Shown here piece after piece: positions 1-48,005 of a DNA stretch of 64,000 nt. A model generated the notes under the pieces. The model did no database searches. It was not told where the DNA came from and saw only the letters and a program-made list of their open reading frames with translations. The first letter of the stretch is position 1. Every line of letters begins with the position of its first letter. A program made the position numbers and the translations under genes. This DNA comes from Candidatus Veblenbacteria bacterium (GTDB lineage: Bacteria > Patescibacteriota > Patescibacteriia > Veblenbacterales > UBA10138): the NCBI GenBank assembly GCA_030700105.1, contig JAUYKG010000016.1, positions 2,863-66,862 on the forward strand. Direction: 5' to 3'.

Positions 1-3000
1 CAGCCGAGACAAGTTCAGTGGTGCCAGAAGAAGCATCAGCCGATAGTCCGGCCGGAGCAGACCTGCCAGCAGTTCAAGAATCGGAGCTGCCGCTGTTCCA
101 CCTGCGCTTAGCGCTTGGTGGCACCGAATGGCAGCCCTTAGTGGATGTGCCGGTGAGCGTGGGTGCCGAATTACCCGGTGAAGTAGTTTTGCCTTTGTCG
201 GTGCTGGATAATTTGGAGGCTGTGCAGATTGCGCTGGTGGCCCCCAGGCGCGAAGAGGCGTCCATGTATGTGTATTTGGACGCACTGGCTATCGAGGTGG
301 ACTACAAAACAGATTTGTTTACTCCTTTACGGCAACTGGTCCAGCAAAACGATGCCGTGGCCACGGAGTCGTTGGAAATGCCGGCTAATCTGGTGTTTAA
401 TGTGGCAACCACTGATTTTGCCGCTGACGAGGATGTGGTTTTTGATTTGGATTATACGGTGGAACTTATGGGCTTGGGGTACGTGAGGGAGCGTAGTGCT
501 TCAGCTGAAAGCGATAACCTTGTCCCGGATTTTACGATTATTGAGGAAGAGACCACGCCAGCAACGGAGAAAGAGCAGTCTGCCGATATCGTGCCTGAAC
601 CAGGCGAGCAAACATCAAGCGAGACATCTACGAGCGAGGAGTCTACTATTCCCGAGCCCAGTGAGGCATCATCCAGCCCGGAATCTTCAGCCCCGACAGA
701 AACGCCAATCCAAATAGAGCCGCCGGTGCCAGAGGTAGTGCCTGCTCAGACGTCTGAAACTCCGCCCGCCACCATTGAACCACCAGTCCAAGAAGAGGTG
801 CCAATTTCAGTAGGCTCTAAGCCGTGGCGGTCGTTGGTCTTAATCGCTCCAGCGGCGGCGGCCGACACTAAGATTGATATCGTTTCCGCCCAGGTTACAT
901 ACCAGGGCGCGCAGCAGCCGGATCTGGTGCCGGTAATGGAAGAAGTGGGAGCGAGCCAGCGTCTAAAGCTTCCGCGCCCCAGTAACTCGTTCCGTCCCGG
1001 CGCGTACCACCTGGTCGTGGAGCTGACGGATGGGCAAACAACAGTGCAGGTGAGCCAGGATTTTACCTGGGGAGTTTTAGCTATTAACACGAATAAGTCG
1101 GTGTACCAGCCGGGTGAGACCGCGTATTTACAAATGGCGGCGTTGGATGATGCCGGACATACTTTGTGCGAGGCTAATTTACAGATCGCCATTACCTCGC
1201 CCGCAGGGGAACAAGTTACGCTACTAGTAAGCGACGGTAGCATTAGTTTAAGTCCTACCTGCGGCCCGGACAATGTAACAGATGAGCCGGATTACTTTGC
1301 TCGCTACCCGTTGGCTGAGGCGGGTACCTACCGCCTTACGCTTACCAACCTGGACACTGGGCACGGGATAACAGGCGAGGTGGAGGTATGGCAGAGCGTA
1401 CCCTATGTAGTGGAACGCGTAGGGGCTACGCGTATAAACCCTTTTAAGAGCAAGTACCGCATGACGCTTCTAGTAACCGCGCTAGACGGATTTAACGGAG
1501 AACTGCGTGAGGTGGTGCCGGAGGGTTTTGAGGTGGAAGCAGAGACTGGCGGCGAGGTGCGGGCCGGCGAGCAGGGCAGCGTGGTGGCGTGGCGTTTGGA
1601 GCTTGAGCCGGGTGAGAATGCTCAGGTGGCGTATGTATACCAAGCACCCGAGGAGTCTCCACAATTTTACCTTTTGGGCCCGGCTGAGCTGGGCGAACCA
1701 TCATTCCCCCTGGGGCAGTTCTTTGGAGTGTTTGGTGATGTGGTGTTTAATGAAACGCGGCAGTGGCAACTGGCCTCTGATGCCGCTTGGTACTCCGCCA
1801 GTTGGTCCTACCGGGTCAAAGTAACTGTGCAAAATGCCGAGGTGGATGCTGACCTGACGAATTTTCCTGTTTATGTGAACTTGGCGAACTTGCCTGCAGG
1901 ATTTCATACCAACGTCAACCAGACTGATGCCCGGGACATCAGGGTGACAAAATCCGACGGTACTACCGAGCTGGCCCGTGAAGTGGTGTTTTATACCGCC
2001 GCATCTGATACAGGCGAGCTTCATTTCCTGGCTAATTCTTTAGCTAATGCTTCTGATACAGATTTCTATATCTATTATGGAAATGCGGGAGCTTCAGATT
2101 ATGGAGTAACTGATACCTATGGCAGGAATGCCGTATGGGCGGGATATGTGGGAGTTTTTCATTTTAACGAATCATCTGGCGGAGCGGGAGCAATCATAGA
2201 TTCCAGTGGTACAGGGAATGATGCGACTGATACAAATAGTCCGACGTTCGCACAAGCGGGTCAATTAGGAAAATCTATTTATTTCAATGGTGGTACAACA
2301 TTTCCATATATCCGAATAGGAAGCACAAGTCTTTCTTTAACAGATTTCACCATATCTTCTTGGATGAAGTTGATGACTGGCACCACAGAGAATAACGAGA
2401 TGCTTGATTATATAGCTGGAACTGCACCTGACCGTATTCTTATCCGTCCAATAGCAGAATATTTAAAAGTCAACGGAACAACAAAACAAGGAGTCGTAAC
2501 CGCAGACAATAGAGATGCGTGGCATTATTTTGCTTTAACGAAAAACAATTCAACCCCCCTCGCAGAGTATTTCAGGGATGCAATATCAGTAACGACTTTT
2601 GCTTTTACTGCGGGAGCTTCAGATTATGCAGCAACATACGCTGGGGCAAGGTCGTACCACTCTATTTTTTATGAAGATGAGCTTCGTATTAGAACAACGG
2701 TATCGTCAGACGAATGGCTCGCCGCTGAATATTCAAACCAAAACACGCCCACAACATTTTATGCGGTGGGGGCGGAGGAGACCCCCCTCCGCGTCCAAGG
2801 CGTGGTCTATATGGCCAATGAGAGCACCTTGGGTACTTCAGGCAATAGCGGCCCTTGTGATGGCAGTACCGCGGTCATCTCCATACGCATCAATGGGGGT
2901 ACCGCAGCCACGGGCTCGTGTAACGCTACCACGGCAGCCTTTGACATTACCGCTGTTTCAGCCGCCGCTTCCGGCGACACCATCACCGTCTACCTCACCT

Positions 3001-6000
3001 CCACCATGAAAGCCAACACGGTCTATGTCTCGGACGGCAACGCTGATACGGGCATAGACCTGTACGAGAACACGCTCGTGGTGGGGCACGTGAACGCTGG
3101 CCCTGCTACCATTCTCGACCTCCTTGACTACGACAGTACGACCAATAACACTGATATGCTGTTTGACGCCGTGGACGCCACCCCCGACACCTTAACTGTG
3201 GAAGACGGGGTAGAGCTCCACGTACGCACCGCAGAAACCCTGACCCCTGGGGGCACCGTCACCACCTCGTCCTCCTCAAATGGTGCTGATACCAATAAAG
3301 ACGGGGATATCCACATAGATGGCACGGGTACCCTTAGTATGGGTACTAACACCCTCTCGGTCGGTGGGGACTTTAACAATGAAGGCACTTTTTCTAAATC
3401 AACCGGCCAAACCACCACCTTCACCGCTGCCGCCACTGGCCACACTATTACGGACGGGGGAGAGAACTTTGACTCCGTCGCCTTTAACGGTTCGGGCGGT
3501 CCCTGGTACTCCTCCTCCTGGCCCTATCGCGTTAAGGTAACCATTCAAAACACCGAGGTTGACGCTGATCTAACGAGCTTCCCGGTCTACGTCAACCTAG
3601 CCAATTTACCAGCTGGTTTCCACACCAACGTCAACCAAACAGACGCGCGGGACATCAGGGTCACCAAAGCCGACGGCACCACGGAACTGGCCCGAGAAGT
3701 CATGTTCTATACCGCCGCTTCGGACACGGGAGAACTACACTTTCTCGCCGACGCTCTTTCCAATGCCTCTGATACCGATTTCTATATCTACTATGGCAAT
3801 GCGGCTGCGTCTGACTATGCCGTTACGGATACCTATGGCAGAAATGCGGTGTGGGGAGATTACGAAGGTGTTTGGCATTTGAACGAAGCAAGTTCAACCA
3901 GAGTAGATTCCAGCGGGAACGGGAATGATATGACCGATAACAATACCGTTTTATCAGCCGCTGGAAAGCTGGCTGGAAACGGAGCAGATTTTGAAACTTC
4001 CGTCCCAGAATATCTTTCCCGAACCGATGCTAATTTGAGCGCAGGATTTCCTGGTAAAAACGGTACTACACCAGCGGCACTCACTGTTTCTTGGTGGTTC
4101 AAACTGGAATCTTTCGTTACGACAAATGTGATGAATATGATTGCCAAGAATGCCACTACGGAAAATCCATATTTTGGGTATGTATATCCTACAGCTGGGA
4201 ATGATTTTCGGGCACAATTAAGTACTACCATTGCCTCGGCTGCCGATTCTGTGACTTCGGCTGGTGTATGGTATAGAGGAGCTTTGGTATGGGATGGAGC
4301 AGATGCTCAAACTTATATAGACGGCGTGGCAAGCGGTTCATCTGTTTCGGTTTCGTCTGTTCCAACAAATACAGGAAGCCTTTGGTTTGGAACAAGAGGA
4401 AGCTTAGGCACAACCCGTTCTATGGATGGCGTCATTGATGAGATTCGTATCCAAGTCATTGACCGCTCTGCCGACTGGGAAGCCGCCGAATACAGCAACC
4501 AGAGTGCCTCAGCCACGTTTTACAGCGTAGGGGAACAGGAAGGGGCCTGGTATAATGCCAGTTGGGATTATCGGGTAAAAGTAACCATTCAAAATGGTGA
4601 GGTGGACGCCGATCTCACCAGCTTCCCGGTTTACGTCAACCTAGCCAATTTACCAGCTGGTTTCCACACCAACGTCAACCAAACAGACGCGCGGGACATC
4701 GGGGTCACCAAAGCCGACGGCACCACGGAACTGGCCCGTGAAGTCGTGTTCTATACCGCCGCCTCTGATACGGGTGAGCTCCACTTCCTGGCTGACTCCC
4801 TGTCTAATACTGTTGATACTGATTTCTACATCTATTACGGCAACGCCGCTGCCTCTGACTATGCCGTTACCGATACCTATGGCAGAAATGCGGTGTGGGC
4901 AAATCATCTTGCAGTTTATCACTTGGCTGATACCCCAACGGGAAGCGCGGGAGACATAACCGACTCATCGGGGAATGGGAAGCATATGACCTCTGTCAAT
5001 ATGGACAGTGGGAATGTGGTGGCTGGGGCTTGGGGCACTGCTTTGGCCTTTAACGGTACAGACGAGTATGCGCTTATTGCAGAGGCACTTAACGCCACAC
5101 TTCCCGCATCGGTCACTGCAATTGTTAAGCCAACGGATGTTGGGGCAGCAACGGAACGATACTTTTTCTCAACTGCGAAGTCAACCGATGACCTTAACGA
5201 ACAAGTTGCAGGTATAAGGAATACCGATACATATATAACACTCACAAGAGGAGGAGCCCCCAGTGCAGTTGCGGAATCAACGATAGATATGACAGACGAC
5301 GCATATGCTCACGTGGCAAGCGTTTGGACTTCAGCAACGAGCAGAGCGGCATATCTTGATGGTGCAAATAAGGGGACAAACACCACATCAAAAACCGCTG
5401 CTGGGCTTGATAGGAGTGCGATTGGCGTTCGTGCGCGGTCTTCACTTGGAGCATATTGGGAGGGAGAGATTGATGAAATTCGTCTTTACGACGGAACATT
5501 GTCTGACCAATGGATAGCTGCCGAGGCCAGCAACCAGAACACGCCTACTACTTTCTACAGTGTGGGGTCAGTCGATGGTTCTAGCGGTGGCTGGTCCTTT
5601 GCTGACAGCACCACTATAGACGTGGACCTTACCCTGACCGCCGGTACCCTCTCCGGCACCCAAGACCTCACCGTGAACGGAGGAGACGTTACTGGCGACG
5701 GGGACATTAACCTTACTGGTGGTACCTTCCTCTTAGATGGAGCCTCTACCACTGGTTTTGGTGGCGCTACCGCCTGGGACTTTAACAACCTTACCCTGGG
5801 GGATGGTACGGGTACTACGACCACGACCGCAATAGGAGCGGGCGGTGTGACGGTGGCTGCTACGCTCACTATTGCTGCTAACCAAACGCTTGATATGAAC
5901 ACGAACGATCCGCCTCTGGATGTGAATGGTGCTGTTTCCATTAGTGGTACTCTCACTGCTTCGCAAACCGCCGTTTTCTCCGTGGCAGGGGACTTTACCA

Positions 6001-6854
6001 ACAACGGCACCTTCAATAACTCCTCGGGCACCGTTACCTTTGACGGTGCTGGCACCAGTACATTCAACGGTTCCAGCGCTCCGGCCATTACTTTCCACCA
6101 CTTCACCTCCACGACGGCTGGCAAGGTCCTTTCCTTTACCGAGGCCAAAACATTCCGTATTAACGGTGTTCTTACCATCCGCGGCTCCAGCGGCAACCAA
6201 ATTACCATTCGTTCCACTTCAGCCTCCAACCAGTGGCTCATTAACCACCAAGGTACGGAGAGCGTTCAGTACGCAGCCATTTATGATTCAGGGTGCGATG
6301 GCTCAAGTACCTACATTTCTCTGGACAACACCTCCAGTGACGGCGACGGTAACAACGGTACCTGCTGGCTGTTCCCCAGTTTGTCCTTCACCCTCAGCTC
6401 CACTTCAGCCAGCTTAGATTTGAACAGTGCTAATACCTTTACCACCACTGCCTCCACCACGCTCACGGTTACGGCCCGCTCGGCCTTTGGCTACCAGGGT
6501 TACGCTAAACAAACGGATAACCTGAGGCATACCGCCGACGCAGGTATCACCATAGCCGATTGGACCGGCACCAATGCTTCTCCCACGGTATTTAACGAGA
6601 CGTGCATAGCCAACGGTGCTAAGTGCGGGTGGGGGTACAACACGAACGATGCTGGCCTTACCCAGTTCGTGGATTCAACGTACTATGCCGGTTTTGTGCA
6701 GAGCACTACGGGCCCGGGCGATATCGTAGCCACGGCTTCGGGCCCAGTATCGTCCGACGCGACTATTATCACCTATCGTGCCAGCGTGGCTATGACGCAG
6801 GCCGCCGGGCCGTACCAAACAACGGTGGTTTATATAGTTACACCGCAATTCTAG
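1..6854 (+). CDS. Giant secreted/surface protein, 5'-truncated (>2278 aa here). It has three DUF2341-like + LamG-like modules, beta-helix-like G/T-rich repeats, and a conserved C-terminal domain shared with the 8477..9751 product.
   Basis: The ORF at 18..6854 has a reading frame that stays open to the window edge, so the true start is probably upstream. A ~120-aa module appears three times: 'SWxYRVKVT(I/V)QNxEVDADLTxFPVYVNLANLPAGFHTNVNQTDARDI(R/G)VTKxDGTTELAREVxFYTAASDTGELHFL...DTDFYIYYGNA'. Each copy is followed by a LamG/ConA-like segment ending 'DEIRI/ELRI...W(L/I)AAEYSNQ'. The C-terminus 'YRASVAMTQAAGPYQTTVVYIVTPQF' matches the C-terminus of the 424-aa neighbour. Confidence 0.8.
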   Translation, partial: AETSSVVPEEASADSPAGADLPAVQESELPLFHLRLALGGTEWQPLVDVPVSVGAELPGEVVLPLSVLDNLEAVQIALVAPRREEASMYVYLDALAIEVDYKTDLFTPLRQLVQQNDAVATESLEMPANLVFNVATTDFAADEDVVFDLDYTVELMGLGYVRERSASAESDNLVPDFTIIEEETTPATEKEQSADIVPEPGEQTSSETSTSEESTIPEPSEASSSPESSAPTETPIQIEPPVPEVVPAQTSETPPATIEPPVQEEVPISVGSKPWRSLVLIAPAAAADTKIDIVSAQVTYQGAQQPDLVPVMEEVGASQRLKLPRPSNSFRPGAYHLVVELTDGQTTVQVSQDFTWGVLAINTNKSVYQPGETAYLQMAALDDAGHTLCEANLQIAITSPAGEQVTLLVSDGSISLSPTCGPDNVTDEPDYFARYPLAEAGTYRLTLTNLDTGHGITGEVEVWQSVPYVVERVGATRINPFKSKYRMTLLVTALDGFNGELREVVPEGFEVEAETGGEVRAGEQGSVVAWRLELEPGENAQVAYVYQAPEESPQFYLLGPAELGEPSFPLGQFFGVFGDVVFNETRQWQLASDAAWYSASWSYRVKVTVQNAEVDADLTNFPVYVNLANLPAGFHTNVNQTDARDIRVTKSDGTTELAREVVFYTAASDTGELHFLANSLANASDTDFYIYYGNAGASDYGVTDTYGRNAVWAGYVGVFHFNESSGGAGAIIDSSGTGNDATDTNSPTFAQAGQLGKSIYFNGGTTFPYIRIGSTSLSLTDFTISSWMKLMTGTTENNEMLDYIAGTAPDRILIRPIAEYLKVNGTTKQGVVTADNRDAWHYFALTKNNSTPLAEYFRDAISVTTFAFTAGASDYAATYAGARSYHSIFYEDELRIRTTVSSDEWLAAEYSNQNTPTTFYAVGAEETPLRVQGVVYMANESTLGTSGNSGPCDGSTAVISIRINGGTAATGSCNATTAAFDITAVSAAASGDTITVYLTSTMKANTVYVSDGNADTGIDLYENTLVVGHVNAGPATILDLLDYDSTTNNTDMLFDAVDATPDTLTVEDGVELHVRTAETLTPGGTVTTSSSSNGADTNKDGDIHIDGTGTLSMGTNTLSVGGDFNNEGTFSKSTGQTTTFTAAATGHTITDGGENFDSVAFNGSGGPWYSSSWPYRVKVTIQNTEVDADLTSFPVYVNLANLPAGFHTNVNQTDARDIRVTKADGTTELAREVMFYTAASDTGELHFLADALSNASDTDFYIYYGNAAASDYAVTDTYGRNAVWGDYEGVWHLNEASSTRVDSSGNGNDMTDNNTVLSAAGKLAGNGADFETSVPEYLSRTDANLSAGFPGKNGTTPAALTVSWWFKLESFVTTNVMNMIAKNATTENPYFGYVYPTAGNDFRAQLSTTIASAADSVTSAGVWYRGALVWDGADAQTYIDGVASGSSVSVSSVPTNTGSLWFGTRGSLGTTRSMDGVIDEIRIQVIDRSADWEAAEYSNQSASATFYSVGEQEGAWYNASWDYRVKVTIQNGEVDADLTSFPVYVNLANLPAGFHTNVNQTDARDIGVTKADGTTELAREVVFYTAASDTGELHFLADSLSNTVDTDFYIYYGNAAASDYAVTDTYGRNAVWANHLAVYHLADTPTGSAGDITDSSGNGKHMTSVNMDSGNVVAGAWGTALAFNGTDEYALIAEALNATLPASVTAIVKPTDVGAATERYFFSTAKSTDDLNEQVAGIRNTDTYITLTRGGAPSAVAESTIDMTDDAYAHVASVWTSATSRAAYLDGANKGTNTTSKTAAGLDRSAIGVRARSSLGAYWEGEIDEIRLYDGTLSDQWIAAEASNQNTPTTFYSVGSVDGSSGGWSFADSTTIDVDLTLTAGTLSGTQDLTVNGGDVTGDGDINLTGGTFLLDGASTTGFGGATAWDFNNLTLGDGTGTTTTTAIGAGGVTVAATLTIAANQTLDMNTNDPPLDVNGAVSISGTLTASQTAVFSVAGDFTNNGTFNNSSGTVTFDGAGTSTFNGSSAPAITFHHFTSTTAGKVLSFTEAKTFRINGVLTIRGSSGNQITIRSTSASNQWLINHQGTESVQYAAIYDSGCDGSSTYISLDNTSSDGDGNNGTCWLFPSLSFTLSSTSASLDLNSANTFTTTASTTLTVTARSAFGYQGYAKQTDNLRHTADAGITIADWTGTNASPTVFNETCIANGAKCGWGYNTNDAGLTQFVDSTYYAGFVQSTTGPGDIVATASGPVSSDATIITYRASVAMTQAAGPYQTTVVYIVTPQF
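1790..2150 (+). repeat. Intragenic module repeat copy 1 (DUF2341-like), the most diverged copy.
   Basis: A DNA/protein repeat of the module also found at 3500..3880 and 4550..4925. Confidence 0.7.
3500..3880 (+). repeat. Intragenic module repeat copy 2.
   Basis: Positions 3591..3694 match 4635..4738 over 104 nt with one mismatch. Confidence 0.8.
4550..4925 (+). repeat. Intragenic module repeat copy 3.
   Basis: Near-identical to copy 2 over long stretches. Confidence 0.8.
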
Positions 6855-26553: not shown

Positions 26554-26946
26554 ATGACACTTCGGCAGTACCTTTCTTGGCTGGCTCTCGGCACGGGGAT
26601 TTCCTGGGGGGCGTTCGGGCTCGTGCTTTCGTACTTGAACCCGGAAACAGCTGGCAATATCGGGTTCTTGTTCTTTTATCTCTCGGTATTTTTAAGCCTC
26701 ACTGGCACGTTGACGCTCATAGGTTTTGCCTGGCGGTACTTAAGGCACCGCGATGAGGTACTTTTTCGTCATGTTTCCATTTCTTTCCGCCAAGGAGTGC
26801 TACTCGCTTTTATGGTGGTAGTGGCGCTTTGGCTGGAAGCACACGAACTTTTAACCTGGTGGAACCTCGGGCTCTTGGTGGTCGGCCTTACGCTCTTGGA
26901 ATTCTTTTGGTTGTCGGTGCGGCGGAGTGCTCCGTCGGCGATGTAA
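26554..26946 (+). CDS. Small integral membrane protein (4 TM).
   Basis: Hydrophobic segments 'LSWLALGTGISWGAFGLVLSYL', 'IGFLFFYLSVFLSLTGTLTLIGFAW', 'VLLAFMVVVALWL' and 'LGLLVVGLTLLEFFWL'. Confidence 0.5.
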   Translation: MTLRQYLSWLALGTGISWGAFGLVLSYLNPETAGNIGFLFFYLSVFLSLTGTLTLIGFAWRYLRHRDEVLFRHVSISFRQGVLLAFMVVVALWLEAHELLTWWNLGLLVVGLTLLEFFWLSVRRSAPSAM

Positions 26947-26960
26947 CTTGTCTTGTGAGT

Positions 26961-27983
26961 ATGTCGTTGAAAGAGGAGCTCGAGCAGTTGCGGCAGCGAG
27001 CACTTCATGAGCTAAAGGGTCTTAAGGATAGTAGTGGCCTGGCTGAACTGGAGGTGAAGTACTTGGGGCGCAAGGGCGAACTGGCACGCGGCTTAAAAGC
27101 GCTGCAGGATGTGGTGGCGGAGGAGCGTCCCCGTTTGGGTGAACTCGCCAACCAGGTAAAGCGCGAGGTGGAGGAAGCCTTCGCGACCATAAAGCAAAAA
27201 TTCGGCAACGGAACTCCCGCGCCGATAGATGTGACGTTGCCTGGTATTCCGCCGCTCCGTGGCCACCTGCACCCGGTGCTGGCAGTGCAGCGGGAATTAG
27301 AAGAGCTTTTTCGTTCTATGGGGTTCATGGTGCTGGACGGGCCGGAGCTCGAGAGTGAGTTCTACAACTTTGAGGCTCTGAACATTCCCGCCTGGCACCC
27401 GGCGCGGGATACGCAGGACACTTTCTATGTGAAGGGTGGCGAACCCAAGAATCGCTGGCTCTTGCGCACACATACTTCACCCGTACAGGTGCGGGCCTTG
27501 CAGGATTACGGTGCGCCTATTCGCGCGATCGTGCCTGGCAGGGTGTTCCGCTATGAAGCCACCGACGCCTCACATGAAACCACGTTTTGGCAAATGGAGG
27601 GTTTGGTGGTGGATAAGGATATTTCCGTTTCCCACCTTATCGCCACTATGAAAGCGCTCCTCACTGGTATATTCAAGCGCGAGGTGGAGGTGCGCTTACG
27701 GCCTGGCTATTTTCCTTTTGTGGAACCAGGTTTCGAGCTGGATATCAAGTGTCTGGTGTGCGGCGGCACGGGCTGCAGCGTATGTAAACACAGCGGCTGG
27801 GTGGAGCTCTTGCCCTGCGGTTTGGTTCATCCCAAGGTGCTGGAGTACGGGGGCGTGAACCCGAAGGAGTATAGCGGTTTCGCCTTCGGTTTAGGGCTGT
27901 CGCGTCTTGCCATGATGCGCTATAAGATAGATGACATTCGTTTGTTACTCTCTGGCGATTTGAGGTTCTTGGAACAGTTTTAG
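26961..27983 (+). CDS. pheS: Phenylalanine--tRNA ligase alpha subunit.
   Basis: Class II aaRS motifs 'FRYEATDASHETTFWQMEGLVVD' and 'GFAFGLGLSRLAMM'. Start taken at 'MSLKEELEQL'. Confidence 0.9.
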   Translation: MSLKEELEQLRQRALHELKGLKDSSGLAELEVKYLGRKGELARGLKALQDVVAEERPRLGELANQVKREVEEAFATIKQKFGNGTPAPIDVTLPGIPPLRGHLHPVLAVQRELEELFRSMGFMVLDGPELESEFYNFEALNIPAWHPARDTQDTFYVKGGEPKNRWLLRTHTSPVQVRALQDYGAPIRAIVPGRVFRYEATDASHETTFWQMEGLVVDKDISVSHLIATMKALLTGIFKREVEVRLRPGYFPFVEPGFELDIKCLVCGGTGCSVCKHSGWVELLPCGLVHPKVLEYGGVNPKEYSGFAFGLGLSRLAMMRYKIDDIRLLLSGDLRFLEQF

Positions 27984-27986
27984 TGC

Positions 27987-30269
27987 ATGAAGATTTCCTA
28001 TAACATACTCAAGACTTTCGTTACTCCGCCTGCGGGCAACACGGGGCGTAGCTTGGCGGAAACACTCACCATGCGCACAGTGGAGGTGGAGAGCTACCAC
28101 GATCAGGCTGGGCGCCTGGCAGGTGTGGTGGTCGGTTTGGTTACGGCTGTACGGCCCCACCCGAACGCAGACAAGCTCAGGCTGGCCCAGGTGGGCACTG
28201 GCAAGCACAAACTTGAGGTGGTGTGCGGTGGTGTTAATTTGCAGGAAGGTATGAAGGTCGCTTTTGCCAACATCGGTACTAAGGTGCGCTGGCACGGACA
28301 GGGTGACTGGGTGACTTTGGAGCAGGTGAGCATTAGGGGGGTGGAATCAGCCGGGATGATCTGTGCAGCCGAGGAATTGGCCCTTATGGACTCCGCTGCA
28401 GTGGAGCACGGCATTATGGACCTCTCGTACCTTACTGCCAAACCAGGTACGCCCCTAGCTGAGGCGCTTGGCTTACACGACATTATACTTGAGGTTGATA
28501 ATAAATCGGTTACCCACCGGCCTGATCTGTGGGGGCACTTGGGATTGGCGCGGGAGTTGGCAGCTATTTGGCAGGTACCGTTTACGCTTCCTGAGCCGCC
28601 TACGCTCGCTGGCGGAGCCGAGGCTCGGCTTAAGGTGACTATTGAGGCGCCGGAGCACTGCCAGCGCTACCTTGGTGTAGTAGTGGCTGGCCTCAAGGTA
28701 GCCGAGAGCCCAGCCTGGCTTAAGCAGCAGCTTGTAAGTTTAGGTGTGAGGTCGATCAACAATGTGGTTGATGTTACGAACTATGTTATGCACGAGCTAG
28801 GACAGCCTTTGCACGCGTTCGACCTTGCCAGACTGGCTGGGCCAGAAATTGTGGTCCGTTTGGCCAAGCGAGGGGAAAAGCTTGTTACGCTTGATGGCTC
28901 AGAGCGCAAACTAGAGGCAGACAGTCTGGTGATCGCCGATGCCAAACACGTCCAGGCCGTAGCTGGTGTTATGGGTGGGCAGGCGAGTGAGGTGGGGAGT
29001 ACTACTACCACCATTGTGTTGGAATCAGCTACGTTCGACCCGGTGAGTGTTCGCTTAACAGCTGGCAAACTGGGTTTGCGTACGGATGCCTCTATGAGGT
29101 TTGAGAAAGGTTTGGACCCGGCTCTGGCCGAACTAGCGCTTAGGCGCGCCGTTCAACTACTGGCAGAGGTTTGTCCTGGTGCCCATGTGGTGAGCAATGT
29201 GGCAGACACATATCCCAGGCCGCTTGAGCTTGTGAAATTAAACTTAAACCTGCCCTGGTTCTGGAAGCGTCTGGGCTGCGAAATTCCACGCGCAGAAGTT
29301 GTGGGAATTTTGGAGCGTTTGGGGTTCAAGATTACGGGTAAGGGCGACGACTTGGAGGTTAAGGTTCCAAGTTGGCGCGCCACGCGGGACATCACGATAC
29401 CAGAGGACCTGATAGAGGAGGTGGCGCGCATTTACGGCTACGACAAGATTCCACTGGCTATGCCAAAATTCGACATCACGCCGCCACCAGTGGACGAGGC
29501 CCAAGCTCTGCGCTGGAAGATTCGTGATTTGTTAGTGGGTGCGGGCTGGACTGAAACGCTGTCGTACTCGTTTTCACGTTCGGGACAGAAACCTGAGCAG
29601 TCTCTCGAACTGGTGAATCCTATTGACCAGACTAGGCGGTGGTTGCGAACCAGCGTTTATGACACCCTGCACGAGCAATTTAAAACCGCCCGCCGCGCTG
29701 ACGAAGGCATGTCACTTAAGTTTTTTGAGCTTGGACGCGTATTCAGCTCACAGGTGGGAGATTGGCCAAGTCAAGTTACAGGCCAGGACAGGCTACCAGC
29801 CCAGCCATGGCACCTTGCGTTAGCAGCCTTTGACCAAAGGCGTGGCAGCCTGTCCGTCATTAGAGGAGCACTCAAATTGTTGGAAAAGTCTTTGAGCATT
29901 AAATTGCCAGATAACCCGTCGTACCATAAGTTTGGAGGCGGTGCCGTCCTAGTTGAAGTTGATCTAACTGGTATCAAGTCGGGCGAAGCACGCACACTTA
30001 TTCCTATACCCAAATATCCGAGCGTAACACGTGACGTATCTGTTGTGGTGCCAGAGGGGACTTCTTGGGAAAACATAGAAGCCGCAGTAAAAGTATCGAA
30101 ACTCATTGAGTCGGTGGAGGTATTTGACGTGTATGAGGCTAAAAGGAGCATTGCTTATCGTCTTACGTTTCGTGCACCGGATCGCACCTTGAAGTCTGAG
30201 GAAGTTGATGAGGTTATGGCGAAGATTACCAAGCTTTTACAAGATAAATTTAACGCTACTATCCGCTAG
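27987..30269 (+). CDS. pheT: Phenylalanine--tRNA ligase beta subunit.
   Basis: 760 aa immediately after pheS, with a B3/4 domain, a B5 domain and a C-terminal anticodon-binding/FDX-like domain ('VFDVYEAK...IAYRLTFRAPDRTL'). Confidence 0.85.
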   Translation: MKISYNILKTFVTPPAGNTGRSLAETLTMRTVEVESYHDQAGRLAGVVVGLVTAVRPHPNADKLRLAQVGTGKHKLEVVCGGVNLQEGMKVAFANIGTKVRWHGQGDWVTLEQVSIRGVESAGMICAAEELALMDSAAVEHGIMDLSYLTAKPGTPLAEALGLHDIILEVDNKSVTHRPDLWGHLGLARELAAIWQVPFTLPEPPTLAGGAEARLKVTIEAPEHCQRYLGVVVAGLKVAESPAWLKQQLVSLGVRSINNVVDVTNYVMHELGQPLHAFDLARLAGPEIVVRLAKRGEKLVTLDGSERKLEADSLVIADAKHVQAVAGVMGGQASEVGSTTTTIVLESATFDPVSVRLTAGKLGLRTDASMRFEKGLDPALAELALRRAVQLLAEVCPGAHVVSNVADTYPRPLELVKLNLNLPWFWKRLGCEIPRAEVVGILERLGFKITGKGDDLEVKVPSWRATRDITIPEDLIEEVARIYGYDKIPLAMPKFDITPPPVDEAQALRWKIRDLLVGAGWTETLSYSFSRSGQKPEQSLELVNPIDQTRRWLRTSVYDTLHEQFKTARRADEGMSLKFFELGRVFSSQVGDWPSQVTGQDRLPAQPWHLALAAFDQRRGSLSVIRGALKLLEKSLSIKLPDNPSYHKFGGGAVLVEVDLTGIKSGEARTLIPIPKYPSVTRDVSVVVPEGTSWENIEAAVKVSKLIESVEVFDVYEAKRSIAYRLTFRAPDRTLKSEEVDEVMAKITKLLQDKFNATIR

Positions 30270-35913: not shown

Positions 35914-36153
35914 AGGCCTTAAGTGAGCCAACTGTTTGGCTTACGTCGCCACGATACGGGCGAGGCGATGCCAGTGGCCGCCGAGCCCAAGGGGCGCCAC
36001 AAAGGACCTGACGAACTGATTAGTACAACTCAAGTTTACAACACGTTTGAGTAAGGGCTAAAAGCCTTAGCGAGGTAAGGATTTTTTAACTTATTATTCT
36101 GGTGGGACCTTTCGTGCAACGAAGGGGCTTGCACCACCTGAAAGGAATTCTGT

Positions 36154-36840
36154 ATGCCAAGACGGAGTAAGCGTTATCAGGCTGCTGCCAAACTGTTGGA
36201 GCCTGGCAAAACGTACACAATTGCGGAGGCGGTAAAGATTATTAAGCAGATGCCCGCCACCAAGTTTGATGCGGCGGTGGAGGTGCACGCTAAATTGGGT
36301 GTGGATGTAAAGCAGGCCAATCAACAGGTGCGGGGCAGCGTCAGCTTGCCGCACGGTACGGGCAAGAAGATTCGCATCGCCGTGTTTTGTGGCGAGGATA
36401 AGGCGAAAGAGGCCAAGGCAGCTGGTGCCGCAGTGGTTGGTGGGGAGGAATTGGTGAAAGAGATACAAGCCACGGGCAAGTGCGATTTTGATATTGCCAT
36501 AGCCGCGCCCGATATGATGAAGCAACTGGCACCCATTGCCAAGATTTTGGGACAGAAGGGCCTCATGCCCAACCCCAAGACCGAAACTATTACGCCGAAC
36601 GTGGCTGATGCGGTGGGCAAGCTACAGGCGGGCAAGGTGAATTTTAAAGCTGATGACACCGCCAATGTGCACATTATGGTGGGCAAGCTCTCGTTCGAGG
36701 AAGATAAGCTGGTGGGGAACATTGGGGCCTTGGCTGAGGTCTTAAAACGCATCCGCCCGGCGGCGACCAAAGGCACATACCTGCAGCGCGTCGTGCTGGC
36801 TACCTCTATGGGTCCGGCCGTGCCCATTAGCCTGGCCTAG
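36154..36840 (+). CDS. rplA: 50S ribosomal protein L1.
   Basis: 'SVSLPHGTGKKIRIAVF' and 'FDIAIAAPDMMKQLAPIAKILGQKGLMPNPK'. Confidence 0.95.
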   Translation: MPRRSKRYQAAAKLLEPGKTYTIAEAVKIIKQMPATKFDAAVEVHAKLGVDVKQANQQVRGSVSLPHGTGKKIRIAVFCGEDKAKEAKAAGAAVVGGEELVKEIQATGKCDFDIAIAAPDMMKQLAPIAKILGQKGLMPNPKTETITPNVADAVGKLQAGKVNFKADDTANVHIMVGKLSFEEDKLVGNIGALAEVLKRIRPAATKGTYLQRVVLATSMGPAVPISLA

Positions 36841-44852: not shown

Positions 44853-46625
44853 TTAACTTCTGCGTTCGGAGATTTCCTGCTCCAGGTCGGCGATGAATTG
44901 GGAGTTTGGAATTGAACTAATTTCTTTCACGCTCCGCTTGCGGACCGCCAGGTTACCGGATGAAATTTCCTTTTCTCCCACTACAAGGGCATATGGTATT
45001 TTTTCTTTCTCTGCTTTGCGAATCTTATTGCCAATGGTCTCATTGGCGTCGTCCATTTCCACACGAATCATTTTATTCCGCAATTCAGTTGCCAGTTTTT
45101 CGCAATAATTCACATGGTCCACACCAACCGGCAGGAGCTTTACCTGCACGGGCGCGAGCCAGGTGGGGAAAGCGCCGCCGTAGTGTTCTATCAAAAAGCC
45201 GATAAAGCGTTCGTGGGTGCCGAGGGGTGCACGGTGGATACAGAGCGGAGTTTTATTGGCCCCACCCTTGTCCACGTAGGTTAGGCCAAAACGTTTGGGC
45301 TGGGCAAAGTCCACCTGGTTCGTAGCAATGGCGAATTCGCGGCCAATGGAACTCCATACCTGAACATCTATCTTGGGGCCGTAGAAGGCGGCTTCGTCCG
45401 CCACTTCGGTAAAGTTCACGCCTGATTCTTGCATAGTGCGCCGTACTAGGTCCTCGGTTTCCTGCCAGAGCTGGGGTTCGTTCACATACTTCTTACCCAA
45501 ACCTTCGGGCGAATGGGTGGAAAGCTGCATAACGTACTTGCTGATGCCAAAGAGCTTGAAGTAGTTCAGATACATATCGTTCACCGCCTTAAATTCTTCT
45601 GCGAACTGTTCGGCAGTCAGGTAAATGTGGGCGTCGTTCATACTGAGCATTCTGACGCGCATAAGGCCAAAGAGCTCGCCTGATTTTTCGTAGCGGTAGA
45701 CCGTGCCATACTCGGCTAATCTGAGGGGCAGATCGCGGTAGCTCCTTGGTTCGGCGGCGTAGACCTGGTGGTGGTGCGGGCAGTTCATAGCCTTGAGGTA
45801 GTACGTTGTCTGATTACCATCTTCATCCATTACCATGGGTGGAAACATAGTGTCAGCATAGTAGGGCAGGTGGCCGGAAGTTTTGTACATTGATTCTTTG
45901 GCAATGTGCGGGGTGCGAATGATCTTATACCCGGCTTTGAATTCGGTTTCCTTGGCTAGCTTTTCCAGCTCTTCTGTTATTACGGCGCCATTCGGGAGCC
46001 AGAGGGGCATGCCTGGGCCTACGTAGTCGGAGAAGGTAAACAGCTTAAGCTCCTTACCCAGTTTACGGTGGTCCCTTTTAGCTGCTTCTTCTCGTTGGCT
46101 TAAATACTCTGCCAGTTCTTTTTTCGTTTCAAAAGCCAGGCCGTAAATGCGGGTGAGCATTTTGTTCTTTTCGTCCCCGCGCCAGTAGGCGCCGGCTAGG
46201 CGGTCCAGTTTCCAGGAGTCCGTTTTGATTTCCTTCATACTCTCGGCATGTCCGCCGCGGCACAGGTCGGTGAATCCGCCGGTTGGCGGACCAGAGGTAT
46301 AGGTGGAGAGCCTTTGCCCTTCCTGGGCGAATTCGGCTATTAGCTCCAGCTTGTAAGGGTTATCTTTGAACATCTCTTTAGTTTCTGCGACCGAGCGTTC
46401 CTCGCGCTCGAAACCACTCCAGCTCGGGAGGGTTTCCCGCATTTTATCCTCAATGCGTTGTAGATCGTCCACGCTCACCTTGTCTTGGCCGAAGTCAAAA
46501 TCGTAATAGAACCCGTCTTCAATAGCAGGGCCGATAGTGCGCTTGGCCTCGGGGTACAGTTCTTGCACCGCCGCGGCCAGGAGGTGGGCCAGAGAATGTT
46601 TTTTAGCTTCAAGGGAAGATGGCAT
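44853..46625 (-). CDS. thrS: Threonine--tRNA ligase (short form without the N-terminal TGS domain).
   Basis: Editing domain N2 'HSLAHLLAAAV'. Class II core 'TEVADEAAFYGPKIDVQV' and 'CIHRAPLGTHERFIGFLIEHYGGAFP'. C-terminal anticodon-binding 'ALVVGEKEISSGNLAVRKR'. Confidence 0.9.
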   Translation of the reverse strand: MPSSLEAKKHSLAHLLAAAVQELYPEAKRTIGPAIEDGFYYDFDFGQDKVSVDDLQRIEDKMRETLPSWSGFEREERSVAETKEMFKDNPYKLELIAEFAQEGQRLSTYTSGPPTGGFTDLCRGGHAESMKEIKTDSWKLDRLAGAYWRGDEKNKMLTRIYGLAFETKKELAEYLSQREEAAKRDHRKLGKELKLFTFSDYVGPGMPLWLPNGAVITEELEKLAKETEFKAGYKIIRTPHIAKESMYKTSGHLPYYADTMFPPMVMDEDGNQTTYYLKAMNCPHHHQVYAAEPRSYRDLPLRLAEYGTVYRYEKSGELFGLMRVRMLSMNDAHIYLTAEQFAEEFKAVNDMYLNYFKLFGISKYVMQLSTHSPEGLGKKYVNEPQLWQETEDLVRRTMQESGVNFTEVADEAAFYGPKIDVQVWSSIGREFAIATNQVDFAQPKRFGLTYVDKGGANKTPLCIHRAPLGTHERFIGFLIEHYGGAFPTWLAPVQVKLLPVGVDHVNYCEKLATELRNKMIRVEMDDANETIGNKIRKAEKEKIPYALVVGEKEISSGNLAVRKRSVKEISSIPNSQFIADLEQEISERRS

Positions 46626-46853
46626 AGTTTTACAAATAAATAACCCAAACGACTACGAGTCATTTGGGTCCCAATGGATAAAAGGGAGGTTCCACCCAAG
46701 TTTCCGCCACTTGGCGGACGCTCTCAAATTGTCTGTACGCTTAGGCCCAAGGTAGCTCGGGCGCCCCACTGGCTAAGCTCGGGGCAGGCAGTTGGTAGCC
46801 GCCGCAGTCGTGTACAGGTTAAAAGTACTTCAACCGGAGGCTTTTAGTCAAGA
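46626..46853 (-). promoter_or_regulatory. Candidate T-box riboswitch leader of thrS.
   Basis: The minus-strand RNA contains 'AACUUGGGUGGAACCUCCC' (T-box-like GGGUGGNACC; plus-strand coordinates ~46688..46703). The antiterminator can form as UUGGG:CCCAA, then a 7-nt bulge UGGAACC, then UCCC:GGGA. A competing terminator hairpin (ACCCAAAUGACU-CGU-AGUCGUUUGGGU, plus 46643..46669) is followed by a U-rich tract just before the AUG. The ACCA triplet upstream is a possible Thr specifier. Confidence 0.5.
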
Positions 46854-48005
46854 TTACTTAAGTTGCAGAGTAATGTGGCTTTCTACTGTTGGTACAGAAC
46901 CCACCCAGAACGGCGATAGCTCAACTTCCACATTCTTAACCCCAGGAATGCCGCTAAAGTAATTCTGTACCTCTTCCGGTGTGCGGCCCAAGAGGTCGCT
47001 GGCGCGAAATAACTTGTCGGGTTCGGTGATTACTACCTGGGCCAGGAATTTCACCTTTAGCATAGCGCTGGTAAGGTCGCCAGCCACGCTATCAATACTA
47101 ACGGCTAGGCTCTCGGGTTCAAGGTTTAGTATTTTGCGACCAGAAGAAAGGTCGGCTTGGAGCTTGCTGAGGGCGTGCTCTCTCAAGTTGTCAGGATCAT
47201 AAAATACGGCAGTTACCTTGACCGTAACCGTGTAGGTGAACTGGTTGTTTTTGGAATTGGCCGGCACGTCGGATTCGGCTTTGGTGGTTTCATTCTTGTA
47301 TACCACGTTGAGATTGCGCTTGTCCTCGGGTAGTTGTTCACGGAGCTTAGAGAGCGCCTGTGGAACCATAATGTCGGTTAGGCTCTTGCGTGCCGCGTCG
47401 AGGTCGAGCGGTGTAATGGAGGTGGAGCCAGTTTTGGGCAACCGGCGCATAGGCTCGTTTGATTCAGCGTGGATTACTTGTTGTAGTTGAGGTCGTAAGC
47501 CCGGAATAGTAAAGCTCGTGGGTCCAATGGCACTGGCCTCACCCACTTGGTCGGCCACTACTCCCACGTTCTCCAGTTTGCCGTTCGCTGGTACGGTAAC
47601 GGTTTCCCGTAGGCGGAAGAGTACGCCCTGGGGCGAAAGTAGCCGGGTGGTGGCGATGAGGGTTTGCGGAGTAGTGTGGGTACTCACGATGGTAACCGTA
47701 CCGGCAGCCCTTTCTTCCAGTTCACCCGAGGGGCTGGCGGGAAATGTTTTGGATTGGGTGACCTCTGTTTCTATAATAGTGCCTGTTACTTCACCCGCTT
47801 CGCTGTACTGTTTAAGCTCGATGGTTGTGTCCATTACCATACTGTCGGGTGATACCTCAAGGGTTACGGTGGCGTGGGCCAGGGAGTAGTAGAGCACGAG
47901 CAACACCACCGCCACAACGGCGCCGGCAAAAGTCACTACGATGCGGCGCATCGGCCGGCTGGCCCCGCGACCCTGTTCGTTCGTCTGAGTTGTGCGTTTA
48001 GTCAT
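46854..48005 (-). CDS. Hypothetical membrane-anchored exported protein (383 aa).
   Basis: N-terminal basic region followed by TM 'IVVTFAGAVVAVVLLVLYYSLA'; the rest is predicted extracytoplasmic. I recognise no motifs. Confidence 0.5.
   Translation of the reverse strand: MTKRTTQTNEQGRGASRPMRRIVVTFAGAVVAVVLLVLYYSLAHATVTLEVSPDSMVMDTTIELKQYSEAGEVTGTIIETEVTQSKTFPASPSGELEERAAGTVTIVSTHTTPQTLIATTRLLSPQGVLFRLRETVTVPANGKLENVGVVADQVGEASAIGPTSFTIPGLRPQLQQVIHAESNEPMRRLPKTGSTSITPLDLDAARKSLTDIMVPQALSKLREQLPEDKRNLNVVYKNETTKAESDVPANSKNNQFTYTVTVKVTAVFYDPDNLREHALSKLQADLSSGRKILNLEPESLAVSIDSVAGDLTSAMLKVKFLAQVVITEPDKLFRASDLLGRTPEEVQNYFSGIPGVKNVEVELSPFWVGSVPTVESHITLQLK

Follow-up and report, generated by a model that had tools for sequence, protein, structure and literature searches.

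The thrS leader and its discriminator

The DNA considered here is a stretch of 64,000 nucleotides from Candidatus Veblenbacteria (contig JAUYKG010000016.1 of assembly GCA_030700105.1, called the window below). Its minus strand carries thrS, the gene of a threonyl-tRNA synthetase (ThrRS) that is 100% identical to a protein annotated threonine--tRNA ligase from a Candidatus Veblenbacteria metagenome-assembled genome (MAG). An intergenic leader (46626-46853, minus strand) lies between the stop codon (TAA, 46856-46854) of an open reading frame (ORF) of 383 amino acids and the thrS start codon (ATG, 46625-46623), and this leader is the subject of our analysis. The original prediction had seen in it a T-box riboswitch, an attenuator that senses tRNA-Thr. 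Comparison with other thrS leaders supports this proposal through the UGGNACC bulge, the overlapping terminator and an ACC triplet, and points to a decoding domain of non-canonical build. The positions of all features are given in Table 1.

The 383-amino-acid ORF (46854-48005, minus strand) has no Pfam match, and dnaE lies farther upstream. This order (dnaE, an ORF of 385 amino acids, leader, thrS) is conserved in ten loci whose ThrRS proteins are 72-83% identical to that of the window, which gave us a set of close homologous leaders. More distant ones, from the Candidate Phyla Radiation (CPR) and from Chloroflexi, came from a search of genome contigs with the ThrRS protein, restricted to the matches listed, among which there were no close relatives.

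The 3' half of the leader reads as a textbook T-box discriminator. The features of such a discriminator are an RRRxG motif, Stem III and an AA dinucleotide, followed by helix A1, a 7-nucleotide UGGNACC bulge and helix A2 (PMC7583486, PMC11297988). The sequence AACUUGGGUGGAACCUCCC, quoted in the original prediction, is present in the minus-strand leader, and the pairings read from it (A1, UUGGG/CCCAA; A2, UCCC/GGGA, inside 46687-46669; bulge UGGAACC) are all there and are conserved or covarying in the homologues. They are preceded by the complete signature GAGCG-UCCGCC/GGCGGA-AA (46723-46701). Within the RRRxG motif the A, G and G are invariant (alignment positions A98, G99 and G101), and in relatives GAGCG aligns to the "AGuG" of the Rfam T-box consensus. 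Stem III covaries in 5 of 6 pairs when the leaders are aligned with MAFFT and in 6 of 6 in a model-based alignment, with 96-97% of the cells paired. It supplies one of the two mutually exclusive upstream hairpins that had been proposed, the one on the UGGCGGA side. The other, CCAAGU/ACUUGG, can be drawn in the window, but we rejected it, since no more than 3 of 10 homologues have it.

UUGGG-UGGAACC, an A2 helix, CCCAA and a terminator with its U run are found in all ten homologous thrS leaders. Among these close leaders neither the bulge nor A1 varies; A1 covaries in the distant ones (UA to CG), and A2 covaries throughout. Across the ten leaders A2 has been rebuilt as UCCC/GGGA, CCCCGU/ACGGGG, CUCCGUA/UACGGAG, CUCCUG/CAGGAG and CCCCGC/GCGGGG. 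Wherever we saw a thrS T-box in CPR or Chloroflexi, the N of UGGN was an A, so the cognate tRNA-Thr would carry a U73 discriminator base; position 73 is not a strong identity element of tRNA-Thr (PMC9976931).

The A1 3' strand CCCAA is also taken in by the 5' strand of a terminator hairpin, GACCCAAAUGACU-CGU-AGUCGUUUGGGUU, which we found to have 13 base pairs, one more than the original prediction had counted. The hairpin ends 17 nucleotides before the thrS AUG and the U tract that follows ends 7 nucleotides before it. The A1 3' strand opens a hairpin followed by a U run in almost every CPR member, with sequences that differ from one to another. The terminator has a computed energy of -18.2 kcal/mol and the antiterminator of -9.5 kcal/mol; folding of the full leader favours the terminator by about 9 kcal/mol. 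The switch would therefore be OFF by default, as in classical T-boxes, and a ligand would be needed to hold the antiterminator.

The conserved 9-mer GGTGGNACC does not by itself exceed chance: five matches occur in the window for 2.6 expected, and the four other copies sit in ORFs or in the rplA leader. The case thus rests on context and comparison, and by these the whole arrangement of the thrS leader appears far beyond chance.

The four-way junction and its covariation

As judged from its sequence and predicted fold, the 5' half of the leader is not a canonical Stem I. The minimum free energy fold of nucleotides 1-90 is exactly a four-way junction including its closing helix P1 (-36.4 kcal/mol). 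When the RNA was cut just past the 3' strand of A1 (nucleotides 1-160), a stage at which the terminator still lacks its 3' half, the junction was followed by Stem III and by the antiterminator with its 7-nucleotide bulge (-56.9 kcal/mol), and the antiterminator was also the minimum free energy structure of nucleotides 96-160. The fold energy of the leader has a z-score of -2.8.

Helix P1 shows double changes at 8 of its 8 pairs in an alignment of 33 sequences; its compensatory changes include GCUAAU/GUUAGC in L090, which is fully compensated, and CCU/AGG in L088. In hairpin P2, all six stem pairs covary and 93% of the cells are paired. The stem has been rebuilt in relatives (for example AACGA/UCGUU and UAGUGG/CCACUA) and the bases flanking its loop vary too.

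In the P2 loop itself, the Thr codon ACC (46796-46794) is followed by the purine A (46793). This triplet is invariant in 25 of 25 members (among the matches listed). It is kept when the loop is enlarged to 10 nucleotides (L124) and when it is followed by a U (L032); the next base is an A in every 7-nucleotide loop and in L124, L032 (ACCU) being the exception. In size the loop matches an anticodon loop, and the triplet is usually preceded by a U and followed by a purine. The original prediction had offered an ACC, within GGCUACCAACUG, as an example of a possible Thr specifier, and this is the very triplet that turned out to be conserved. We infer that it acts as the specifier and makes a loop-loop codon-anticodon contact with tRNA-Thr(GGU). 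The ACC within the P4 loop is not conserved.

The remainder of the junction consists of the two variable hairpins P3 and P4 and of the junction strands J1/2 and J4/1. The GAU and UAA of these strands may together make up what we take to be a UAA/GAN-type internal loop or a K-junction-like motif. Among the aligned leaders we found no canonical K-turn, AGUA/GAA S-turn, AG bulge or distal platform, Stem II, IIA/B pseudoknot or F-box (CCGUUA).

Five helices had been defined by eye and were then tested by alignment. When 10 leaders were aligned by MAFFT, blind to structure, 91.6% of the cells were paired, compared with 30-42% when the partners were slid by 1-3 columns, and double changes occurred in 20 of 31 pairs. 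In an alignment of 33 sequences to R1, a covariance model built only from Veblenbacteria-like leaders, 91.3% of the cells were paired (59% after shuffling, 34-47% after sliding) and 30 of the 31 pairs showed double changes. As the model-based alignment is fitted to the model and leans towards the structure, the MAFFT result serves as the independent check.

Table 1. Features of the thrS locus, in the order in which they are met on the minus strand.
Feature	Positions	Strand	Remarks
Putative -35 box, TTGACT	46846-46851	minus	Directly after the stop of the upstream ORF; placed by comparison
Putative -10 box, TACTTT (TAnnnT)	46822-46827	minus	Would put the transcription start just before or at P1
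P1, 5' strand, CUGUACAC	46810-46817	minus	Pairs with 46740-46733; closes the four-way junction
J1/2, GACUG	46805-46809	minus	Junction strand; family consensus GAUUG; nearly invariant in close and distant CPR members
P2, candidate specifier hairpin	46786-46804	minus	Stem CGGCGG/CUGCCU, 6 base pairs; 7-nucleotide apical loop CUACCAA (46798-46792)
P3, GCCCC...GGGGC	46763-46785	minus	Variable junction hairpin; a hairpin in essentially all members, of unrelated sequences and lengths; in the minimum free energy fold
P4, CCCGAG-CUAC-CUUGGG	46746-46761	minus	Variable junction hairpin; in most members, small or marginal in a few; in the minimum free energy fold
J4/1, CUAA	46741-46744	minus	Junction strand; kept by every close member and by almost every distant one
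P1, 3' strand, GCGUACAG	46733-46740	minus	Partner of 46817-46810
Linker ACAAUUUGA and purine motif GAGCG	46719-46732	minus	GAGCG is the RRRxG motif, immediately before Stem III
Stem III, UCCGCC-AAGU-GGCGGA, and conserved AA	46701-46718	minus	AA (46702-46701) invariant; covariation
Antiterminator	46664-46699	minus	A1 UUGGG 46699-46695/CCCAA 46668-46664; bulge UGGAACC 46694-46688; A2 and loop 46687-46669
Intrinsic terminator	46632-46670	minus	13-base-pair hairpin 46670-46642; U tract UUAUUUAUUUGU 46643-46632; from a terminator scan
thrS	44853-46625	minus	Gene presumed to be regulated; 590 amino acids; Pfam tRNA-synt_2b, HGTP_anticodon, tRNA_SAD

Relatives, promoter and neighbouring genes

In the window R1 gave a single match. 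Outside it, full-length matches were obtained upstream of thrS in at least 13 further CPR loci, with scores of 34-102 bits; among the labels of these loci are Nomurabacteria, Falkowbacteria, Komeilibacteria, Paceibacterota and Patescibacteria group; the titles of several MAGs are evidently wrong. Altogether the members recovered are 10 close and about 14 distant CPR leaders, all of thrS. The element is conserved upstream of thrS in 25 leaders (among the matches listed) from divergent CPR lineages, in which ThrRS identity goes down to about 45-60%. This sample is biased to thrS loci, its members having been fetched through ThrRS or with a pattern that contains the family's own conserved strings. 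The variant thus sampled appears to be widespread in Patescibacteria. The further idea that the element speaks for a Gram-positive-type regulatory repertoire is not carried by it, the organism being a Candidatus Veblenbacteria of the CPR and not a Firmicute. In the literature searched we found no report of T-box regulation in CPR lineages, which is not proof of absence.

R1 also recognised canonical T-boxes of Chloroflexota, over its positions 88-156 only, which correspond to the discriminator (L010, E 2e-5; L021, E 3e-5), and its matches in two CPR leaders with other 5' domains were limited to the same positions. This shared match indicates that the variant is homologous to T-boxes through its 3' half.

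Other thrS leaders of the CPR combine a T-box discriminator with a different 5' domain (L036 and L065). In a Peregrinibacteria locus (L005, about 2799-2938) the discriminator follows a seemingly shortened canonical Stem I with GAA-ACA-A, ACA being a codon for Thr; the Rfam score of L005 is 44 bits. Set beside the variant, these leaders suggest that at least two T-box architectures coexist in the CPR. Five loci carry a CPR-type ThrRS and the variant T-box in co-assembly MAGs labelled "uncultured Gammaproteobacteria" or "Saccharibacteria" (L003, L026, L032, L044 and L058), labels which look unreliable.

Small ORFs are found between the variant T-box and thrS in some loci. They encode a NUDIX hydrolase in L086 (3451-3918) and L057 (2490-2978), and a GNAT (Acetyltransf_3) acetyltransferase in L043 (2436-2975), L003 (2335-2892) and L129 (1961-2548); the switch may therefore control two-gene operons there. 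A tRNA-Val(GAC) gene lies immediately upstream of thrS or its T-box in L009, L010, L020, L022, L028, L041, L053, L063, L071, L074, L075 and L138. This adjacency is seen in many Chloroflexi, CPR and other loci and is missing from the Veblenbacteria-like group.

Upstream of the junction, TTGA(C/T) at the -35 position is invariant in 11 of 11 aligned leaders. A TAnnnT hexamer follows 17-18 nucleotides past the -35 box in the homologues (TAATTT, TATTTT, TAAAAT and others), and with these two boxes the thrS leader transcript would start at about the first helix, P1. The Pfam-less ORF of 375-387 amino acids between dnaE and the thrS leader is kept in the window and in the syntenic relatives L081-L091; in L084 a divergent ORF of 226 amino acids is interposed ahead of the thrS leader.

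Elsewhere in the window, we considered and rejected a T-box for pheS (ATG at 26962) and pheT (27987-30269). The GGTGGAACC at 26858 lies inside an ORF of 130 amino acids (26554-26946), a predicted membrane protein that pheS directly follows, and pheST has essentially no leader; PheRS is thus not T-box regulated here. The short leader of rplA (36154-36840; leader 36080-36153, plus strand) contains GGUGGGACC...GGGGCUUGCACCACC, which could be an autoregulatory L1-binding site; no Rfam family matched it. The window starts with a very long ORF of about 2278 amino acids (18-6854, plus strand).

Some further candidates for the thrS leader were set aside. A c-di-GMP-I aptamer match (46791-46867, minus strand), overlapping the promoter, P1 and P2, reached 19.6 bits (E 0.18) for a gathering score of 35 and was judged to be chance, as were weak matches of the leader to mir-361 and to the Tymovirus tRNA-like element. 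Attenuation by a leader peptide was rejected, since the sole AUG of the leader sits inside the terminator and is not conserved.

A candidate tRNA-Thr switch and its alternatives

Taken together, these observations lead us to read the leader as a T-box riboswitch with specificity for tRNA-Thr that works by transcription attenuation, its discriminator being canonical and its decoding domain not; we put the probability of this reading at about 80%. Transcription would start at the conserved promoter just upstream of P1, and the first 90 nucleotides or so would fold into the four-way junction of P1, P2, P3 and P4. The P2 loop CUACCAA would then show ACC and a purine, and the ACC would pair, loop to loop, with the GGU anticodon of tRNA-Thr, while the GAUUG and CUAA strands and the two variable hairpins would stand in for the K-turn, S-turn, distal platform and Stem II. 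Downstream, GAGCG-Stem III-AA and A1/UGGAACC/A2 would form the usual discriminator. If the tRNA is uncharged, its 3' UCCA would pair with the UGGA of the bulge and stabilise the antiterminator, and RNA polymerase would read through into thrS; otherwise CCCAA would be captured by the more stable 13-base-pair terminator, and transcription would stop about 17 nucleotides before the AUG. The binding of tRNA, the antitermination by uncharged tRNA and the roles of the junction strands are thus parts of a model.

Several points weigh against this reading. Searched with Rfam 15 at gathering scores, the whole window gave no matches. RF00230, whose use the original prediction had recommended, gave no match to the leader at E<=10, even when 205 nucleotides only were searched; none of nine close relatives matched it either, and distant CPR members reached only 28-40 bits, from the discriminator alone. 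We attribute the miss to the non-canonical 5' half together with the very high gathering score of RF00230, 93 bits. The original prediction had named as refuting evidence a missing Rfam hit together with the absence of a Stem I or specifier loop presenting a Thr codon; we found no Rfam match and no canonical Stem I or specifier internal loop, and yet an ACC is displayed, in an apical loop.

A second group of adverse points concerns the codon. We found no family member with another codon or in front of another aminoacyl-tRNA synthetase gene, so that the argument that the codon follows the gene cannot be made. A pattern asking for a codon with a second base other than C gave 55 matches in metagenome contigs, among which the two true members were both ACC/thrS in another register; in viral contigs a pattern allowing any codon gave 8 matches, all of them chance. 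ACC might in principle be invariant on account of some other pairing, as ACCA resembles the 3' end of a tRNA and ACC complements the GGU in GGGUGG. No tRNA-Thr gene was found in the window or in the 154 loci, and the match between A and U73 is a prediction. Because its -10 box is weak, the promoter of the thrS leader went uncalled in the consensus promoter scan. Transcriptional T-boxes are reported to need a long Stem I platform for fast capture of the tRNA, and T-boxes with a short Stem I to need Stem II (PMC7583486); neither platform nor Stem II is recognisable here. Lastly, the mechanism is proposed here from sequence, conservation and computed folds.

One alternative explanation keeps the discriminator and terminator as functional and gives the junction another job. 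The junction could bind ThrRS or another protein, ACCA could act in cis on UGG by imitating the 3' end of a tRNA, or ACC could pair with the GGU of GGGUGG, and ACC would then be no specifier. As ACC and the bulge are both invariant, covariation cannot identify the partner of ACC, and the lack of members with another codon suits this explanation too. There is also a precedent, as E. coli thrS is autoregulated by ThrRS acting on an operator (PMC9976931). Like the leader studied here, that operator is a structured thrS leader with a hairpin of the size of an anticodon arm (5-6 base pairs and a 7-nucleotide loop). However, its loops bear the Thr anticodon (NGU), it has neither T-box bulge nor terminator, and its effector is a protein and not a tRNA. 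An operator for ThrRS would be expected to mimic the anticodon (GGU, UGU or CGU) and not its complement. In our leader the loop bears the codon, and T-loop-like conserved loops are missing; we thus rejected a ThrRS operator or tRNA mimic as such.

Other evidence favours the specifier. The canonical thrS T-boxes of Chloroflexota (L010, L021 and L075), which scored 93.7, 88.3 and 84.2 bits with Rfam, stand before the same gene, use ACC-A as specifier and carry a UGGAACC bulge, which points to an identical discriminator base; L010, with the specifier GAAA-ACC-A, counts as a genuine Rfam T-box. They differ from the element described here in having a full Stem I, Stem II and F-box. As their specifier shows, ACCA is the expected form of a Thr specifier. 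Moreover, the U that follows ACC in L032 destroys a CCA mimic and keeps the codon, and a discriminator that lacked a decoding domain would bind tRNA weakly and without specificity (PMC7583486). A junction with another job thus seems unlikely to us.

Considerably less probable is a switch acting on translation or mRNA stability, in the manner of the short-Stem-I ileS T-boxes of Actinobacteria. These are the nearest described forms (Sherwood 2015 and the M. tuberculosis and N. farcinica ileS structures, reviewed in PMC7583486), and variants with a short Stem I and an apical loop have so far been found mostly in translational T-boxes (PMC7583486). With their intermediate or "ultrashort" Stem I, they resemble our element in lacking the elbow platform, in presenting the specifier apically, which is known for short Stem I T-boxes (PMC7583486), and in having the same discriminator core. 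In contrast to it they keep the K-turn, the S-turn of Stem II and also the IIA/B pseudoknot, whose place is taken here by two variable hairpins, and they sequester the Shine-Dalgarno sequence, whereas here there is a terminator, a P1 junction, thrS and not ileS, and a host in Patescibacteria and not Actinobacteria. What competes with the antiterminator is a GC-rich hairpin of 13 base pairs with a direct U tract, and no Shine-Dalgarno sequence is sequestered. Almost all CPR members repeat this design of hairpin and U run in sequences of their own, and the ORF between element and thrS in some loci also argues against control of translation.

We give slightly less credit still to an ordinary T-box of the RF00230 type whose standard Stem I has diverged beyond the sight of the covariance model. 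The likeness is real: as in the canonical transcriptional T-boxes (RF00230; B. subtilis tyrS, thrS and glyQS), the element lies upstream of an aminoacyl-tRNA synthetase gene, has RRRxG-Stem III-AA, A1, UGGNACC, A2, a mutually exclusive terminator and a default-OFF balance, and shows a codon of the cognate amino acid with a purine after it; glyQS leaders also have no Stem II or IIA/B. The discriminator is canonical, and the gathering score is so high that clear Chloroflexi T-boxes reach 84-94 bits. A canonical T-box has, however, a long Stem I with K-turn, S-turn internal loop and AG bulge forming the distal elbow platform, and none of this was found here. Conserved sequences of a GA/K-turn, an AGUA/GAA S-turn, an AG bulge with distal T-loops, a Stem II or an F-box are lacking. 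The codon sits about 25 nucleotides from the 5' end in an apical 7-nucleotide hairpin loop, within a junction closed by P1, instead of in the 3' strand of an internal loop; the covarying P1 encloses three hairpins, GAUUG and CUAA are conserved, and A2 starts with YYCC and not GCG in the Veblenbacteria-like clade, which the Rfam model does not detect. When a relative (L031) was aligned to the Rfam T-box model, 85 Stem I positions were skipped and the discriminator alone was scored.

Least probable of all is a chance T-box-like motif joined to the terminator of the upstream gene in a structured spacer, which the frequency of the 9-mer alone and the lack of an Rfam match would allow, but against which stand the full architecture in 25 divergent CPR leaders (among the matches listed) with extensive compensatory changes, the conserved promoter between the upstream gene and the element, and the low fold energy.

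The element is thus very probably a member of the T-box family through its discriminator, with a decoding domain built in a way not described before. We are also inclined, with clearly less assurance than for the leader itself, to see in it a phylum-wide class of T-box decoding module. In this class a P1-closed four-way junction would present the codon in an anticodon-loop-like 7-nucleotide loop, and GAUUG/CUAA would replace K-turn, S-turn, elbow platform and Stem II in a kinetically controlled terminating switch, apparently dedicated to thrS across Patescibacteria. If true, it would contradict the rule that transcriptional T-boxes need a long Stem I platform and truncated ones Stem II.

T-boxes are a model system for the recognition of tRNA by another RNA. 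Their decoding domain has been thought to take a few related forms, either a long Stem I with elbow platform or a short Stem I with K-turn, Stem II S-turn and pseudoknot. To our knowledge, very little is known about gene regulation in Patescibacteria. The leader described here and about 24 relatives join a canonical discriminator and terminator to a decoding domain of a different build, and whether a T-box can work without a K-turn has been posed as an open question (PMC7583486). If these elements are functional, they would amount to an experiment of nature on how little it takes to read an anticodon during transcription, and surveys based on Rfam, with the databases derived from them, would undercount T-boxes. 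It would also mean that amino-acid-dependent epibionts monitor the charging of their tRNA-Thr.

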